A stretch of DNA of 64,000 nt from Massalongia carnosa (Eukaryota), in the NCBI GenBank assembly GCA_965645245.1, contig OZ287069.1, positions 2,294,001 through 2,358,000 of the forward strand. The letters run 5' to 3'. Shown here piece by piece: positions 1,582-26,941 of this stretch. Each line of letters starts with the position of its first letter. The stretch's first letter is position 1. Both the position numbers and the translations under genes were made by a program. A model generated the notes under the pieces. That model worked only from the letters and a program-made list of their open reading frames with translations, did no database searches and had not been told where the DNA came from.

Positions 1582-3453
1582 CTAAGCAAACCCCTCCCAA
1601 CCACTCCGGCTCTCCTCCCCATCCGTAACTGTACCGTTGTCGCTCCTCCCATCCCTCACTTCAGGCCCATACCCCCCGCTGGTCGGGCTCGACGAGCCCC
1701 TCGCCGCTCCCCCAACCGTGCTAGGCAAGTCCAGCTCGCTCTCGTTCCCGCTACTGTCGTCAGCGTAGGCTCGCTCTGTTCCAGGAAAAGGGTCTTTGCG
1801 CCGGAGGACGGGTTCCCCGGCGGTGATGGCGGGGAGGTTCAAATTGCCTGGGAGGGTGGCGCAGCTGATGCCCCGACGCTCGTGCACAGAGACATTGGGG
1901 GTTTCACCGCGGGTAGGGTCCGCGACGCGGATGGTGCTGAAGATAGGGCTTAGGGAGGCGATCCACGGCTCGTGGTAGGATAGGGAGGGGTTGCGAGGTG
2001 ACGGATAGGAAGTGCCGGGTGGCGAAGGGTGGGAGGGACGGACTTTTCTGATGTACGAGTACGAGTCACTGCCCGGGGGGGCTTCAACGTAGATGTGCCC
2101 GGACTGGATTCGAGCCGAGCGCTGGATTTTGGCTAGGAGTGTATTAATCACCCAGCCGTCAAGGAGCTCAAGGCGCTGAAAGGCGGATTGGCCGCGCTTG
2201 TCGCGGTATTCATGGATATAGTGCAGAGGACGGATGACATTATTTGCGAAAGTCCAGGGTAGGGCTTTGCGGTCTTGAGCGGGATTGCTCCGTTGGTGAA
2301 AGTTGCCGTTAAGAAAACGGATGACTTCGTCGTCGAGGGGATGCGTGTCCGTGTCGATTGCTTTTCCGATGATACGGTGAAGGAGGCGGTCGTAGAGGCT
2401 TTGCGCTTTGGGGTGCGAGTAGAGGCTGCGAGGTGAGCACGGATGGACGTTTTCGACAGGGGGTGGCGCGGGAGCGATGGCGTCGTTGAGAGGGAATGGG
2501 TCGTCAGTTGAGACGATATAACGCCAGTGTTCGGACAATACCTCTGTGCATGGGTATATGTCTCGAATGGCGCAGAGCTCTAGGTGTGGGGTGCACCCGT
2601 CCTCGGATTTCTTCATCCGAGGTAGGCAATCATCCGTATAGTTTTCAACGTCAATGAAGCGGAGAACATCATAGTCGTTTGCATCCAATTCTTTGTTATT
2701 CCATGGATATATTTCTCGGTTGACCATCGTAGCCTTTGATTGCATTGACTCTTTCATTGTCACGTCCTGATATTGTGCTAAGCCAAAGGACTTGTGCTCA
2801 TCCTTTTGATATCTAGCTTCGATAGCTTTCATGATTTCTTCTCCAAGTCTGAATGCACAGTTTCTTTCGCTAAGTCCTACTGTCCGTATGCTAAAGGAAT
2901 CTGATATCATCCCGAGCGCATCATTCATAGCACCTCCACCACATTGCTGAAGAGCATCACACATGCGGTAAATAGCTAGGTATTCAATAGCCGAACAAAA
3001 TGTATTTCGCTTCTTTATATCCATATAAGTATCGATGCTGGGCGCTGTGATGTTAGAAGTAATTCCAGCCAAAAGATCCGACAGTTCTTCTGATTCTTTC
3101 GATAAAGTCCAATACGCCTCAGCGTCCCAGTGAAGCTTTTCTGTGCGGAGATACTTGACGCAAGTACGTAGCCTCCCTGTAGCGACAACGGAATCTAGAT
3201 CTCGCATCTCGTGAGATGATATCGCTGCACGATATGCGTCGACGACGGCAAGCTCTGGATACCCAAGCCTGCTCTAGGCAATAGCACGATTAAGAAAAGC
3301 AAAAACATGGCCAGGACATGTTTTGTAGAGGACCTCAGTGTAGAGATGTAAGGCCTTTGAAGTTTCGCCAGAACCGAGATGTTCATTTGCTCGAAAAAGC
3401 AGACCCTCCGTGCTGTCATAGCTATTGACGACACGAAGATTTGACCTTGCCAT
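1582..3453 (-). pseudogene. TPR + degenerate SET-like domain protein, interrupted by one in-frame TAG (codon 60); pseudogene or editing/readthrough-dependent gene
   Basis: The frame of the 541-aa ORF extends upstream to ATG 3453 through TAG at 3274-3276: ...KALHLYTEVLYKTCPGHVFAFLNRAIA*SRLGYPELAVVDAYRA (TPR-like). Downstream AIRDIYPCTEVLSE and LSPIFS..PNVS resemble SET-domain segments but lack the NHS motif. Family call is by motif recognition only. Confidence 0.65.
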
Positions 3454-8112: not shown

Positions 8113-8572
8113 TACGGGAACTTGATGATAACGTGTTCGTTCTAAGAAGAGTAATTAGCCTTGATATTGCAAAATAATAATAAGCCAAACTGTCTGTTTC
8201 ATTCTTTTAGAGATTTCGATCATTTGGTAGCTTTTTCATAATCAGTAGGGGATTTCTTGCGTGCTATTTCAGACTTTAGATTTGAGTAATATGAACCAAG
8301 CATCCTCTAAACTTAATATTTATGGAATAATGTGATTGAAATACCGCAGGCCTGATTCTACTAAACTTAGGGATAGGGGGAACTTCGAAGAAAATCGAGA
8401 ATAGCGGAGCCCACCCAGTATCTAACTATAAATAATCTCCAAACCGACAGGCAAATTTCCAACCAATCAATAAATTAACCAATTCCTGAGACGCTAATAC
8501 CCGGGAGGAGGGGAGAACTATGATCTTGCTACTGCTTGAGCTAGTTGTGTATTCTCAGGGGTAGAGAGGTAA

Positions 8573-9866
8573 TGTCAAACCTGAATGCGGTCGATTCTCA
8601 TCGCCGATCCTCGACCCCCTGTCGCGGCAGATGCCGCTAAGACTACGCCATTTCTTTCCCACCTTTACCCCTCAATTTGCCGGGGTTGATATCGTTCGCC
8701 GCCATGACCCCTTTTCCCTTCTATGTATATAGGTAGCTAGATGTGGGCATTTCCCACATACAGAATACAATCTTTTCATCCTTCCTGAATCCATGTGATT
8801 GGTCAGAAAGGTTGACAGTTATGAGCCCGGGTTAGCTGAATTTTTCGCTGCCTTCATCTTATCTTTAGTTATTGGTAAGCTGATTTATCGCTGACTTCAT
8901 CGACCCCGAAATATCCTAGGCAGGCTGAGTATCGCCACCGGAATTATCGTATCTTTCATGGAGCATCGCAGAGTTGATTTATTCCTCGTGCTTCTGTTTT
9001 CCTTTGCCTTTTTGGTCGTTTCCCTGTTTTTCCCATCTGTCTCCATCATTGGTCGGTTATCCCAAATGGAAGACTCGTCGTCGGGATCGTCTCGGAAACT
9101 CATCGTCTCGGCTCTGACGCCTAGGACCTACAATTCCTGGTTGTCGGAAATCAAGGGTATCGCGGTACGATCTCAGGTATGGGAGTACGTCGATCCGGAA
9201 GGATCAGAGCCGGAACCTACCATTCCCAAATTTCCCAGATACAGTGATTACGTCAAAGTCGTCTCGGCAAATACGCCTGGCACTGATTCTACCAATACCC
9301 CTACGCCTGCTATTGTCGCTTCTCAAGGTTCTTCTCAAGGGACAGTTCTCGGCGATTCAAATGGCCTGCCGGTCCTGATTCCCGAACCATGTTCTCGGTA
9401 TGCCGATCTCTCGGAATCACAGAAGGAGTCGTACAACGCAGATGAACGGTCACATCGAGGGCTTCAGGCAGATGCCAGGGCCGCAGCCATGGGAATTGAG
9501 AAGGTTCATACGATCATCCTGGAGTCGGCTAAAGATTATGTCGCCAGGAATGTCAGATCATCCTCGGTTCGAGAAATTCTTCAGTCCCTGGCCCACAAAT
9601 TCAAAAAGAATCCGGGCTCATAACTGTCAACCTTTCTGACCAATCAGATGGATTCAGGAAGGATGAAAAGACTGTATTCTGTATGTGGGAAATGCCCACA
9701 TCTAGCTACCTATATAGAAGGGAAAAGGGGTCATGACGGCGAACGATATCAACCCCGGCAAATTGAGGGGTAAAGGTGGGAAAGAAATGGCGTAGTCTTA
9801 GCGGCATCTGCCGCGACAGGTGGGTCGAGGATCGGCGATGAGAATCGACCGCATTCAGGTTTGACA
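8573..9866 (+). mobile_element. Ty1/copia-derived non-autonomous element with inverted LTRs and truncated gag
   Basis: LTR 8573-8817 (TGTCAAAC...GTTGACA) + PBS GTTATGAGCCCGG 8818-8830; reverse-complement PBS 9612-9624 + reverse-complement LTR 9625-9866; direct TSD GGTAA at 8568-8572 and 9867-9871. Confidence 0.92.
9066..9623 (+). CDS. gag: Truncated copia-type Gag N-terminus
   Basis: YNSWLSEIKGIAVRSQVWEYVDP resembles the N-terminal motif of fungal copia Gag; lies downstream of LTR+PBS; ORF ends at a TAA supplied by the inverted PBS (frame also open from ATG 8958). Confidence 0.75.
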   Translation: MEDSSSGSSRKLIVSALTPRTYNSWLSEIKGIAVRSQVWEYVDPEGSEPEPTIPKFPRYSDYVKVVSANTPGTDSTNTPTPAIVASQGSSQGTVLGDSNGLPVLIPEPCSRYADLSESQKESYNADERSHRGLQADARAAAMGIEKVHTIILESAKDYVARNVRSSSVREILQSLAHKFKKNPGS

Positions 9867-10136
9867 GGTAACTAAGTTATACGATTATTAAAGGGTGCGG
9901 ATACGGGCACACCCTATTAGCTTCCTTAACACCCTACTTTGCTACCTTCACACCCTACTTGGATACATTCACACCCCCGAAAAAGTAACCGCAAAAGGGA
10001 AAGTTTCCGCCCCCTTCCCTTTCCAAATTAGGGTAAGCGGCGCGAAATTTTGCCGCACCTGAAATTTCGCTGCATCTTTCGCAAAATTTCGTCGCATCTT
10101 GGAATTTCGCCGCAACCTTCCTCTTACTCCTGCAGA

Positions 10137-12701
10137 ATGTCATCTTCCGATGACACGTTCAATGGTTTTGATACCGAATCCAATTCTTCCGCTCCCAATC
10201 TCATCATCCTCGAAAGAATCGCATCTGCCTCCCCTCCGCCAGCTTCTCCCCCTCCGCCAGCTTCTCCCCCTTCGTCAGCTTCAGCACCTCTTGCTGCTCC
10301 GGAAGAAGGACAATCCTTTGAGTCTTTGGAAGACTTGATTCAACGAGTCAATGAGCATGCTGGCCCGCGCGGTTATGCAATTGTTCTCGCTCGTACGAAG
10401 AAGAATAAGGATGGAAATACGCGCAAAGCTTGGTTGATTTGCGATCGAGGAGGCAGAGTGAGAGAACCTCGTGGACAAAGTCGTCGTCATACTGCCAGCA
10501 GAGCCATTGCTTGTCCCTTTTCAATGATTGCGATTCGGGAAAAAGAGTTGTTGCGAATGCCAAGCCAGCTAGAGCATATCTGACGTAATATGCGAATGCC
10601 CTCGCGTATTTTACTGATATGGGAATAGTTACATCTGAGAATTTCTGGTATCTTCGATGCTTAGAAATTCAGGTCTATAGACGTTCGAGTAGAATCTCGA
10701 ATGTTCTATGATCAACATGTATATAACATCACTCCTACGCATAGCTTAGAGATCAGTCGCAACAACCTGAATTATTTCATTCATAGAAGTTCTGTACTAT
10801 CCAGAGACTTCTGGCACTCTGCCACCTATTTTCTGTGCATTGGGTCCATCATTCTCCATCCATCCCTCCTATTTTAAATAAGAGTCTGATATCTGGTTTT
10901 TGGAAGTGGTCAAATCGGAACATAATCATGCCTCGAGTTTAGCAGGGGCTCATCCAGTGCATCGAAAGATGGCTATCACCGCCGAGGTAAAAGATGAGAT
11001 ATCGCGTCAGCTAACTGTTCAGACTGCTCCATCGAAAGTGATTTGGAGTCTGCGCATACCTGATCTTACCACCGGAATCAATTGGGACGATCCGGCCAAT
11101 CCTCGAGTCGTCAATCCCATGAGCAAACCTCGAGACATCTACAATCTCAAGGCTCAACTTCGTCGCGAGGCTTTGGGACCGTTGACTCCCATACAGGCAT
11201 TGATTCGAGAGCTTGATCAGAGCGACGATTGGTTGTATCAAATGCAAAAGAATGAGGAGGATCGCAATCAAATAACTCATTTATTCTTTGTAAAAGGAGG
11301 TTCCCGAACTTTTTTAACGTCCAACTATGAGGTTCTGATCATGGATTGCACTTATAAAACCAATCGCTACAAAATGCCTCTTCTGATCATCAGCGGTCAA
11401 ACCGCATTGCATACCAATTTCTATGTGGCTTTTTGCTTCATGGCCAGTGAGACAAAATTTGACTACACCTGGGTTTTGAGGCAAGTCAAAGCTCTATATT
11501 TGCAAATGGAGCTTCCAGATCCGACCGTCATTGTCACCGACATGGAAAGAAGTCTGATGCTTGCTCTTCGTGCGCAATTTCCTCGTACCAATCATCTGCT
11601 TTGCATTTGGCATATCAATAAGAATGTCGTCGCCAATTGCAAAAGACAATTCAGCAAGGAAGAATGGGACACCTTCTTTGCGGAATGGAAAGCGATAACT
11701 TACGCCTCATCGGAAGTCATACTATGGGAGCTCTGGGGTCAGTTTTCGATCAAATACAAGGACTATGAGGTAGTGGAATATCTGGCTACCACCTACATTA
11801 CTCATGTTCAGCATTTCGTAAGATGCTTTACCAATCGAGTACTGCATTTTGACACCACCACTACTTCCGAGGTGAGGGAGGGCATGCAGTGATCAAACGT
11901 CAATTAGGAACGTCGACCGGAGATCTGAAAACGGTGGTGGACGGAATCAGTCTTTTATTGATGAACGAGTATCATAACTATTGGATCAAATTGAATGAGG
12001 ACAAAACGCGATATCCGCTAGATCTTCGGAAATCAAATTTTCAGCAAATATCTCCATTCATCAGTACTAAGGCAATCAGAAGAATTAATTCTCAGTACGA
12101 TTTACTGACCGGGAGACCGACGGCTCTGCCAGCATGTACGAATTCTTTTACAACCAGCACCGGACTGCCTTGCAGTCATAGAATTCAGGAAAGATTGTAT
12201 GGCGAAGGAAGTTTATTGCTGGAAGACGTTCATCCACATTGGAGATTTGAAAGAAACGCTCCCGCCAATGATTTCAATCTGCTGATAGTGGAAGAACCAG
12301 ACATTATTCGACCTCGTGGACGACCTTCGGGAGCGGAAAACAGAAGAACTCAAGCTTTCAATGCCTCTACGGGTCGACAACCTTCTCAATTCGAGCGAGT
12401 TATTATGGAGACGGCAGAAGATGAAGAGGTGCCAGCGGATGTGGAACGGGTCATTCGTCGGGCGGATCCAGCCCGACAAGGGCGCGAGGCAGAAGAGCTC
12501 GAGCTGATCGAGGTGATCGAGGTGGTGGAGATGCACGGGGGACGCGGGGGACGCGGGGGACGCGGGGGACGCAGGATGCGCAGGAGACTCGAGGGACTCG
12601 AGGTGCGCGAGGGATTCGAAGAAGTGCTCGGAATGCGCGAGAGAATCAGGGAGGTGAGGGAGATGTCAGAGATGGAGACGGCGAAAATGAGGGTTGAATG
12701 A
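10137..12701 (+). pseudogene. MULE transposase, disrupted by an insertion and a frameshift
   Basis: FAR1/WRKY-like Zn finger (CDRGG..CPF..HNH), MDCTYKTNRY, VIVTD, LLCIWH, GLPCSH. Insert at 10549-10880; frameshift near 11866 in the TS(R)GEGGH catalytic-Glu motif. Confidence 0.93.
10549..10880 (+). mobile_element. LTR-type insertion (solo LTR, or LTR plus leader) inside the MULE transposase
   Basis: 5-bp TSD AGAGT at 10544-10548 and 10881-10885; removing insert plus one TSD restores IREKESDIWFLEVVKSEHNH. Starts TGTTGCGA; matching TCGCAACA ends at 10764. Confidence 0.85.
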
Positions 12702-15700
12702 AGCAGCGATAGATCAGGCAGGAAATGAGGTAGCTAGTCTGCTTTAAGTTTAGTAGCTTGAAATCAAGGTGCGAATGGCCAACATGGTGCCAATCGACTC
12801 CGATTCCTGAGGTTCGAAAACATGGAATTTCTTCCTTCCCCATCTCAGGCGACAGAATTTCGCACCGCTTACCCTACTCGGGAAAGGGGCGGCGGAAACT
12901 TTTCCTTTTGCGGTTACTTTTTCGGGGGTGTGAATTTATCCAAGTAGGGTGTGAAGGTAGCAAAGTAGGGTGTTAAGGTAGCTAATAGGGTGTGCCCGTA
13001 TCCCGACCCTTATTAAATATGTACAACCGGAACTGTCCAAGCTCTACATCTTTAAGAGTTTGGGTAGTTGTCTTAAAACAACTGATGGGAGCACCTTGGG
13101 AGCTTTTTTTTTTGGCAGTTGCTGATTACTGAAGTCGGTTTCACGGATGGTGGGTTTCGTCTTAAATATCACGTGACTTTCCATCTGTCACGGCCTACTT
13201 GGTCATTAGATCTGTAACGCTACTCCTAAGATGGTCCACTCAGCCCTTGAGTTGAGAAACATGAACCCACATCCTACTCAATCAATTTCAAACCGGCCAT
13301 GAAATCGTCACTGCAGAACTAAGGTCTATATTTTTCTATTTATCGAAATCTCCCTGCAGCATAATAAACCCCATACGAGAAACGAACAGACTTGACAAGT
13401 ACCTACTGAAAGTCCTGAAGCATGAAATACCTTCTAATATACCTTCTTACCAAATTACCAGAATAAGCAAATACGCATTGACTTATGGCTCTTGATAATG
13501 TAGAGTAAGCTAACTTGTGTTCTCCGGTTCGAGAGCAATAAACTGCGAATGCCTTTTGCATTCTTGGCCGGAGATCCTAAGGCTTTTCTCTGTTTTTCTG
13601 CTTCTCTGCTTAATCGTGTTAGACGCTTCTTCATGAATTTCTAATATCGACATAAAAGATCGACTCCGGCATGACGGCAACAGATACCCAGTGGAGCTTG
13701 ACATCTCATCGATATGGATATAAACTAAAAAGATCAAAGTGGTACAGACACCCTTCTCTACCAAGGTCCTATCGCCACCTTTCGAAGCTCTATAAACCTA
13801 TCGATGTCCAGGGACACCTCTAATTTGAAAGAAAATGTCTTGTCGAAGCTAGCTCGCAAAATGAGGCAAGCTTTTCATAGGACATACGCACTCTTGCTTA
13901 CTTATGGTAATCACAAAAACTCACTAGGGTTTGAGTGATGTATAATATATTGATTTTCCCTATGTTTCCTTTGCATCGACTCTCTTTATTAGATTTTCTG
14001 TCAAAGATTTAGTTCTATTTTAAATGGGAAATCTGGAAGTAGCTGTGGGAATGGTTCCGCCAATGGCTTCCCAAGAGCTCCATGCCCTGCTGGATCTGAC
14101 GACAGAGGATCCCGAGACTGGAGATACAGTTTCTCATTATGCCTATGGATTACTACTGGCGATTAGAACAAATAGTTTCGTCGAGTTCGTGACGCCTTCG
14201 CTTATTGCGAACGGAAAAGCGACGACCCCGAGGTTTCATGTTTGATATATACTCCTAAACTACCTTCATTGCTTTCATAACGGTCCGACTGATTCTCCTT
14301 CCTTTCCTTCTCCAATCGACTTGGATATTAGATCTGAACTTGTATTCTCATTACAGGAGAGGATCTAAGAAAACTGACTTTACAGAGAAGGGGAAGAAAA
14401 AGGAATAGGACAAATCAGGCGAACATGTGCCGATGTTATGGTCGAGTCAAAACTAGATTGATTTGGCAAGTCTAGGACTCTCGGGTTCCAAGAAACAACA
14501 AGTTATACAAATGGCGGGTTTTCTTCCTCTCCAAATATTGGTTGAATCAATAAACTCTTTTTCCCCTTGTCATAGTTGGCAGGATCAAGTTTGAACATAA
14601 GAAGATGTGGTACTGCGAATCAAAGGAGATAAGGCCTTTCACTAGCCAAACTTATGTCTTCCAAAAGTCTGAACATGAAAATCATCCAGATCGCGCTCCA
14701 TGGCATCATACAAGAAACCTTACATAACCAATCAGCTGATATCCCACTGCTTGACTCATCCAAACACATGAGTGGCCTTGAATTGGTACGTTACGCCTTG
14801 CGTCTAACAAGCAGCATTTTGATCTGCAGGCTGGGTGTTCCCCATATCATTGTGGTAGATACCTAGCCACATTTAAGAATCTAATGGAAACTTTCAACCC
14901 CATCATGCTGCTGCTGTACCCGCCAATCTCATTTGCATCCTTTCAACGCAGACATTGCGCTCGTCCATTGCATTCAGTCATCCATCATCAACTTGAATGC
15001 TTTCTAGCCCTTCAGGCATTCATACGTTCAGAAGCGAAGCTGTCAGCTATGAACGCAAAGGAGATATGTGTGAACCGCATGGCAATCCATATACGATCAT
15101 TTTAGGTATCGATGTGAACGATAATTATAGCTGAATAACGGAGAGAAAGGAGATGGAGAGGGAAAGCGAGAGGGAGAGGGAGAGGGAAAAGGGCGAACGT
15201 AGCAGAGAGTGAATGATGATGATGATACCGTCTTACATATCCCGCCGATGCGAGGTAAGCGAGTGGGGATGTGTTTATCGGGAAGATCAATTGGGTTAAT
15301 TGGATCGGCATGGCGGTTGTACAAGGTACGAAGTACGTGGTACCTTGTACCGACGGAGGCATGACTCGCGTGAGAGGACGAACTAAAGCTGGAACTACGC
15401 TCGAAGTGGACATCTCGGGCTTTTAACCTCCGAAAGACGACCCATAAACTTGGATAAAGTGAGATAAGCTTTTGTGCACATGGTGCATCCCAACTATACA
15501 TGGATCGCCCAGCGCCATATCTGTACAGAGTACTTTGTACTCCGTACTCTACTCTGTACACGGCATCGACATTTGCCGAGCAGAGCTTAGTTATATAACT
15601 ACTCTGTAAATGGAAGAATATAATGCTCATTAACGGCTTCCCGGATTCCTGGATTCCCGGCTTCCCTCGGCTTATGCAGCGGTCGATGCACCTACGACAG

Positions 15701-26160: not shown

Positions 26161-26941
26161 ATGAAATATCAGTTAATCACTCTCATTACCATCGCGGCTA
26201 CTGTCATCGCTTTGCCGGCTCCAGGAGACAACCATTTAAGCAGCAAACGTGAGGTTACTGTGTGTACCGAAGCAACGATAGGTCAAGAATGTTTGGTAAT
26301 AAATGTAAATAGCAAGCAGTAAATCTCTTAGGTGTCTTAAGAAGCTGACATGATGATTATTATTCAATAGGCCAAAGGCGTAACAGTCAGTTGCATTTGT
26401 AGGGTAGGTTATGCCTATCCTTGAGTCATAGTATAACGATCTTTTGCTGATAAATGATTCATTCATTAAAATAGTTTATTAGCACTCCTATCTTAGAATA
26501 ATGTTGTAGTAAATCTTTCACTGATAAACGATTTGATTTTTGAAATAGAACGTAAGTTACCTCTGTCGTTGAATCATATTATAACAGTTATTTTGCTAAC
26601 AAACAATTTGTTTGTTGAAAATAATCTGTAAGTTACGTCTATCTTCGAATTATATTTTAACGATTCTCTTGCTAATAAACGAATTGTTTGTTGGAAATAA
26701 CTTGTAAGCTACGACTGTCGTTGAATCATGTTATAATGAATTTTCTGCTGATGACCGGTTTGATTGTTCAAATAAAACATAAGTTATTTCTCTTGTCATT
26801 GTTTCTTCGCACGACACACACGTTCACTCGATCTTGGTTGTTGGCTTTAAATGTGGTCCCGCCTTTAGTTTTGTCTTCGGTCTTTACCCAAATATAAAGA
26901 GTTTCTGTTGGAATAGCAACTGTGCGGCAGCTGACTGCTAG
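26161..26941 (+). CDS. Small secreted cysteine-rich peptide (prepro, Kex2 KR site) with micro-exon array; possibly pseudogenised
   Basis: MKYQLITLITIAATVIA signal peptide, LPAPGDNHLSSKR pro-region, EVTVCTEATIGQECL; intron 26296 (or 26305)-26370; exon 26371-26403 AKGVTVSCICR; 3' structure inferred (see findings). Confidence 0.7.
26404..26851 (+). repeat. Tandem array of ~74-76-bp intron-like units with 3-nt spacers
   Basis: Units start GTAGGT/ATTAGC/GTAAGT/GTAAGT/GTAAGC/ATAAGT at 26404, 26478, 26552, 26628, 26704, 26779; the first five carry a CTRAY branch-like motif and end AATAG or AATAA. Confidence 0.85.

Follow-up and report, generated by a model that had tools for sequence, protein, structure and literature searches.

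A copia-derived retrotransposon copy with inverted LTRs and a single target-site duplication in Massalongia carnosa

In 64,000 nucleotides of Massalongia carnosa DNA (the whole stretch analysed, hereafter the window, to which all positions refer), a 1.3-kb copia-type copy was found in which an LTR followed by its primer-binding site (PBS) at 8573-8830 faces the reverse complement of LTR and PBS at 9612-9866. The LTR orientation is inverted, unlike the direct LTRs of an intact Ty1/copia member, and both arms of the element carry a PBS. It is probably a dead copy that arose from one aberrant copia cDNA bearing a U3 at each end, which the element's integrase inserted once.

The window was compared with contigs of other sequencing runs and with public proteins. 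Eleven runs were listed, seven of which contained part of the stretch, with no RNA run among these; those with matching sequence came from a lichen metagenome and three coded organisms, which makes a lichen-associated fungus the probable host. Four runs (X1, X2, X3 and X5), all in the form of contigs, were compared. The reference protein, P0001, is a 1651-aa protein from a public assembly. The anatomy of the element can be read directly from the letters, and its features, with the basis of each in brackets, are as follows.

8568-8572, no strand: left copy of the target-site duplication, GGTAA (sequence; crossed by flank contigs of X1, X2 and X3)
8573-8817, plus strand: left LTR, 245 bp, TG...CA, with TATATA at 8726 (sequence and arm alignment)
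8818-8830, plus strand: primer-binding site, 13 nt, GTTATGAGCCCGG (sequence)
8831-9065, plus strand: untranslated leader (stretch separating the PBS from the ATG at 9066, which corresponds to residue 1 of P0001)
9066-9615, plus strand: Gag-Pol codons 1-183 (gap-free alignment to P0001)
9612-9615, no strand: CCGG, microhomology at the breakpoint, present in gag as well as in the inverted PBS (contigs from full-length elements follow the window to 9615)
9612-9624, minus strand: inverted PBS (sequence and arm alignment)
9625-9866, minus strand: right LTR, 242 bp, the left LTR reverse-complemented with its U3 end outward (repeats and alignment)
9867-9871, no strand: right copy of the target-site duplication, GGTAA (sequence)

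The left LTR begins with TGTCAAACC and ends with GGTTGACA. A repeat search recovered the inverted repeats as three collinear blocks (45, 122 and 108 nt; complementarity 100, 95 and 97%), and in a pairwise alignment the arms differed by three substitutions and by two indels, one of 1 bp and one of 4 bp. The arm differences, and the coordinates, agree exactly with the original prediction, which had described an LTR (245 bp) with PBS followed by a PBS and LTR (242 bp) in inverted orientation. That prediction had also placed the unit between direct repeats of GGTAA, and these are present at 8568-8572 and 9867-9871. The TGTCA...TGACA ends with GGTAA on either side fit the terminus and the 5-bp duplication that define a Ty1/copia insertion, and the chance of a 5-mer match at two fixed places is about 0.001 for the composition of the window. 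Because the other family copies in X1 diverge from the window exactly before 8573, the LTR terminus is fixed at that position. Both arms contain a TATATA that points inward. No purine tract of at least 9 nt was found beside either arm, such tracts occurring only inside the inverted LTR, and a direct 3' R is absent from the element. Without a polypurine tract and a direct 3' R, the element is unable to replicate.

Downstream of the leader, the frame at 9066-9614 aligned without gaps to residues 1-183 of the P0001 polyprotein, with 171 of 183 residues identical, and codons 1-181 used as a protein query gave 94% identity across the whole query. Pfam domains in P0001 were Pol_BBD (residues 444-524), gag_pre-integrs (577-630), SH3_retrovirus (818-886) and RVT_2 (1145-1374), with rve at 643-745 scoring below the Pfam cut-off. 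Integrase ahead of RVT_2 is the Ty1/copia order; the element in the window keeps codons 1-183 only. Since this relative places integrase before RVT_2, the element is, as judged from the encoded protein, copia-derived with a Ty1/copia parent. The domain order (Pol_BBD, gag_pre-integrase, rve, SH3, RVT_2) bears out the copia origin claimed beforehand, and the match of 9066-9614 to P0001 bears out the claim of a truncated gag.

Past codon 183 the gag frame runs for two codons inside the inverted PBS and then reaches TAA at 9621-9623; the predicted product of the open frame at 9066-9620 is the first 183 Gag residues plus two. This 185-aa gag piece matched none of the Pfam families. An in-frame ATG upstream, at 8958, would add 36 hydrophobic residues to the gag frame, MEHRRVDLFLVLLFSFAF... 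(8958-9065), and the relatives P0002, P0005 and P0006 have N-terminal extensions similar to it. The leader may be partly coding in the copia family of this element.

The joint between gag and the inverted arm was located by comparison with full-length copies. Contigs from such copies fit the window through 9615 and then encode the next residues of P0001 (DEVQRQ...). Loose ends at 9615 were found in two contigs of X2, two of X3 and one of X5, and X1 contained a 5241-nt contig whose first 642 letters align to 8974-9615. The inverted arm starts at 9612, and the letters common to gag and arm are CCGG (9612-9615) only. As the full-length relatives continue past 9615 and the arm starts at 9612, the break lies in CCGG, which is its own reverse complement and at the same time the final 4 nt of the 13-nt PBS; CCGG occurs at four more sites in the retained interior (8938, 9195, 9210 and 9369). 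The inverted arm consists of LTR and PBS and nothing further. This accords with the earlier claim that the arms are LTR plus PBS, as in plus-strand strong-stop DNA; the joint in CCGG at the PBS end is an addition of the present analysis. The junction falls at the 3' end of the PBS/tRNA copy, where it would lie if plus-strand strong-stop DNA had been transferred aberrantly, and a break in CCGG at the PBS end strengthens the reading of the arm as putative strong-stop DNA.

The complement of the 13-nt PBS reads as a putative initiator-tRNA anticodon stem-loop. The primary paper on Ty5/copia priming from the initiator-tRNA anticodon arm is that of Ke et al. 1999. For Ty5 and copia, the cited text gives the initiator-tRNA anticodon arm as the primer, and the PBS that directly follows the LTR here likewise reads as the complement of the initiator anticodon stem-loop (PMC5371799). 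There were no tRNA genes in the 64-kb window.

A metagenome scan with the 21-mer made of the LTR end and the PBS returned six contigs (L001-L006) in which the 21-mer was identical and the elements were otherwise unrelated. The base following ...CCCGG in the six was A, A, G, C, T and G, and their similarity to the element ends right after ...CCCGG; they had been chosen by the 21-mer itself, so that this gives limited support for the PBS end. By BLAST, one of the six loci shares 24 nt with the element and five were without a match. Two facing matches to the 21-mer were present in none of the six loci, and none of these belongs to the element's family. The contig L003 encodes a distant copia-like Pol with 28% identity to P0001. 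The 21-mer (GGTTGACA plus the 13-nt PBS) is, judging by these letters, a terminus-plus-primer signature common across families. The 13-nt extent of the primer copy is drawn from the arms, the six motif-selected contigs and general features of initiator tRNAs.

Independent contigs confirmed the left junction. Single-copy contigs of the left flank cross GGTAA into the LTR in X1 (to 8602), X2 (to 8596) and X3 (to 8602); they come from two studies and reach 24-30 nt into the LTR. The X1 flank contig differs from the window by three letters and by indels that include a 14-nt insert, with the LTR at the same place. Because these flank letters and indels differ, this contig was not the source of the window, and the left junction is real and common to differing haplotypes. 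Among the contigs listed, none bridges 9615/9616 or the right junction; as contigs only were available, this is uninformative. The depth in the bin 9546-9642 in X1 and X5 is wholly explained by a contig ending at 9615, with none over 9616-9642. Parts of the right arm have zero depth in X1, X3 and X5, where repeat contigs that fit two arms are placed once and rare variants are dropped, so that these gaps carry no weight in either direction. The word depth of interior contigs was about 8-fold (X1) and 24-fold (X3) that of the single-copy left-flank contig, values that are not copy numbers. The parent copia family is abundant in these runs.

Further copies were sought both inside and outside the window. 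Within the 64-kb window, neither DNA nor protein comparison revealed a further copy of the element or of any portion of it. The junction pattern gave 0 matches in viral contigs, and the LTR start gave 0 matches in prokaryote genome contigs. Among protein relatives of near length, 0 of 4 end in the junction-derived residues; P0004 (144 aa, 97% identical) ends before the junction.

Other features were noted in the window. A Mutator-like DNA transposon lies at 9891-13011, 19 nt to the right of the inverted-LTR element, with 124-nt terminal inverted repeats (9891-10014 and 12888-13011) that are 95% complementary and an ORF at 10969-11892 with a MULE transposase domain (E 7e-27). It is high-copy in 4 of 4 runs, and its other copies diverge just before 9890/9891. 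At 26539-26772, a 76-nt unit is present in three tandem copies with 72-76% identity to the reference copy. A 541-aa ORF on the minus strand at 1582-3207 had no Pfam match at E <=0.01.

The differences between the arms bear on whether they had one source or two. The arms were compared with family contigs aligned on the left arm in four runs, these contigs being majority sequences in which variants are collapsed. At position 8697 both arms carry a letter that is absent from all 7 of the family contigs aligned there (four runs). Two changes are private to the left arm (a 4-bp insert at 8722-8725 and an A at 8770), and at both places the family contigs side with the right arm. Three are private to the right arm (one additional A, one T and one C), and no family contig departs from the left arm there. 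All five arm differences are therefore private to a single arm. Because the rare letter is shared and the differences are private, the arms would have been identical, or nearly so, when the element was formed. Between the interior and the contig nearest to it, one of X1, 3 of 642 letters differ, which is comparable in order to the divergence of the arms. This pattern fits a single source for the arms, with mutation probably following later. The original prediction had proposed one integration of a molecule with two U3 ends, probably built from two templates: the first part is in keeping with the single 5-bp duplication, but the second is not supported, given the shared letter at 8697 and the private differences.

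From this anatomy we infer a reverse-transcription step of the following kind. During plus-strand synthesis, free strong-stop DNA (U3-R-U5 plus 13 nt from the half-tRNA primer) would be made with a 3' end of ...CCGG. This end would pair through the palindromic CCGG with plus-sense gag rather than with the minus-strand PBS complement, its partner being either a plus-sense template or the growing plus strand, whose 3' end had reached codon 183. With a displaced plus strand ending at codon 183 as the partner, mutual extension of the 3' ends would give the observed duplex directly, with a blunt U3 terminus on each side; a plus-sense RNA or DNA template would give the same bottom strand, with extra steps to complete the top strand. 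Extension would yield a linear dsDNA with the order LTR-PBS-leader-gag(1-183)-inverted PBS-inverted LTR. We infer that the integrase joined both U3 ends to one target, which would leave a single 5-bp duplication, and after integration the arms would have gained two (left) and three (right) private changes.

In HIV-1, as described in the cited passages, plus-strand strong-stop DNA that is mis-transferred gives rise to deletion junctions carrying a copy of the PBS or tRNA (PMC12657518). The U3 terminus here, TGTCAAACC, is nearly identical to the normal U5 terminus read inward, TGTCAACC. Ty1 integrase is described as inserting any TG...CA-ended DNA with a 5-bp duplication (PMC2939329). Because any such DNA is taken, a U3/U3 molecule would be expected to integrate with one GGTAA duplication, and the single 5-bp duplication around the whole unit fits one integration with two U3 ends.

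The 4-nt microhomology at the joint counts against a template switch to the extent that it suits host end joining equally well, and the four further CCGG sites of the interior also tell against the preferred reading. Microhomology-mediated end joining by the host could have made the head-to-head joint from two pieces of cDNA, one a broken fragment with LTR-PBS-leader-gag and the other a duplex of LTR-PBS, followed by the same integration and with no template switch. Only 4 nt are common at the joint, which is typical of end joining, and the outer ends and single duplication are equally well accounted for; this route nevertheless still requires strong-stop DNA, in the form of an unattached LTR+PBS molecule with its end at the PBS, and a break in gag exactly at CCGG. 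End joining and template switch predict the same product, and we regard the former as a rather unlikely origin of the joint. An artefact of assembly or library, in which a chimeric read or a mis-join between high-copy repeat copies put the inverted arm on gag, appears improbable. It draws on the repetition of the family (interior at about 8-fold flank word depth in X1 and 24-fold in X3) and on the junction, which is bridged by no contig among those listed. A simple fold-back chimera was rejected because GGTAA comes next after the right arm, and the flank beyond it does not repeat the left flank in reverse complement. An artefact would also have to produce the second GGTAA by a 5-mer match with a chance of only about 0.001, and to make a join over a 4-nt overlap, far under what assemblers join on. 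The right arm, moreover, is not an average family copy, since both arms carry a letter absent from the aligned family contigs.

Changes after integration would have had to be exact. An ordinary element, or two head-to-head insertions, might have been reduced later by deletions or inversion; nested and rearranged LTR elements are common, and the MULE transposon 19 nt rightward indicates a region that accepts insertions. This history requires two exact deletions, one reaching from the CCGG in gag to the point where the PBS of a second copy, in inverted orientation, ends, the other from an LTR terminus to the duplication of the first element, whereas recombination between inverted copies yields inversions with unmatched duplications and not the present form. 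The private letter common to both arms also speaks against it, and we hold such a history to be quite improbable. The original prediction went further in proposing a new non-autonomous type, a mobile family of inverted-LTR elements copied from either end. A promoter-bearing LTR and a PBS at each end would favour this, but neither arm has a polypurine tract beside it, and the direct 3' R that the first strand transfer would use is missing. No second copy was present in the window, 0 of 4 near-length protein relatives had the junction residues, and viral contigs gave 0 matches. The proposal was not upheld by the sequences searched, in which no second junction copy occurred, and a mobile family is very improbable indeed.

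A single aberrant cDNA with two U3 ends, the reading preferred here, has its closest parallel in HIV-1. Defective HIV-1 proviruses, as the cited passages present them, share with the copia copy a misplaced strong-stop DNA, a PBS/tRNA copy at the edge of the junction and a product that was still integrated (PMC12657518). They differ in that the strong-stop DNA lands downstream on the minus strand, giving a deletion with direct LTRs, whereas the copia copy would have had a plus-sense partner and has an inverted arm, two U3 ends and a 13-nt site of the half-tRNA type. Inversions have been recorded elsewhere: in a set of 78 distinct HIV-1 proviruses, genomic inversions occurred in one and sequence inversions together with a deletion of >1 kb in one (PMC9278108), and one foamy-like insert in the guppy "has inverted LTR" (PMC5210030). 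These are likewise integrated retroelement copies with inverted parts; the passages cited give no junction anatomy, whereas the copy described here combines an LTR+PBS arm with a microhomology that is palindromic and with one duplication. In the Ty1 work, TG...CA-ended DNA was supplied as PCR fragments in an over-expression experiment (PMC2939329), whereas the copia copy would be a natural product. The literature search, which did not cover old virology papers, found no description of an inverted LTR+PBS arm with a single duplication.

Membership of recognised classes was also considered. DIRS elements, whose inverted repeats go with an internal complementary region, are not known to make a target-site duplication. 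They resemble the present element as retroelements with inverted terminal repeats, but according to the cited passages they use a tyrosine recombinase (PMC7192593, PMC3950715), whereas the parent here encodes a DDE integrase and RVT_2. DIRS membership was rejected on the DDE integrase and RVT_2 of the parent and on the 5-bp duplication. TRIM and LARD elements occur in several copies and have direct LTRs, a PBS and a polypurine tract; membership of these was rejected on the inverted LTRs, the missing polypurine tract and the single copy in the sequence searched. Defective integrants from aberrant strand transfer are already known, and the inverted-arm copy is best read as a variant of these.

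The element could also have consequences at the level of RNA. In the predicted fold of the element as a single strand (1294 nt), both arms were fully paired, with a minimum free energy of -744 kcal/mol. A hairpin RNA, or convergent transcripts across the leader and gag, would be possible on this model. That the left junction is common to two differing haplotypes is compatible with retention of the locus but no proof of it; the locus might have been kept as a source of hairpin or convergent transcripts feeding RNAi and restraining the abundant parent copia family; we consider this doubtful, with only a slim prospect of being correct. In maize, Mu killer, an inverted partial duplication of a transposon, reportedly silences its family. 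The likeness lies in an inverted partial copy able to yield hairpin or dsRNA against an active family; Mu killer differs in that it derives from a plant DNA transposon and its silencing is said to be proven, whereas the copia copy is known from sequence alone. Were the locus a source for RNAi, it would be the retrotransposon counterpart of Mu killer, produced by an error of reverse transcription.

As a single dead copy, the element has modest biological weight unless small RNAs show it to act. It would represent the mirror outcome of mis-transfer in HIV-1, with strong-stop DNA joined in the wrong polarity. If this reading is true, the arm records the extent to which the half-tRNA primer was copied (13 nt), and the integrase accepted a pair of U3 ends, with a 5-bp duplication of the normal kind as the result. 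Aberrant transfer of strong-stop DNA would then be a further route by which inverted partial copies arise that are able to form dsRNA against an active family.
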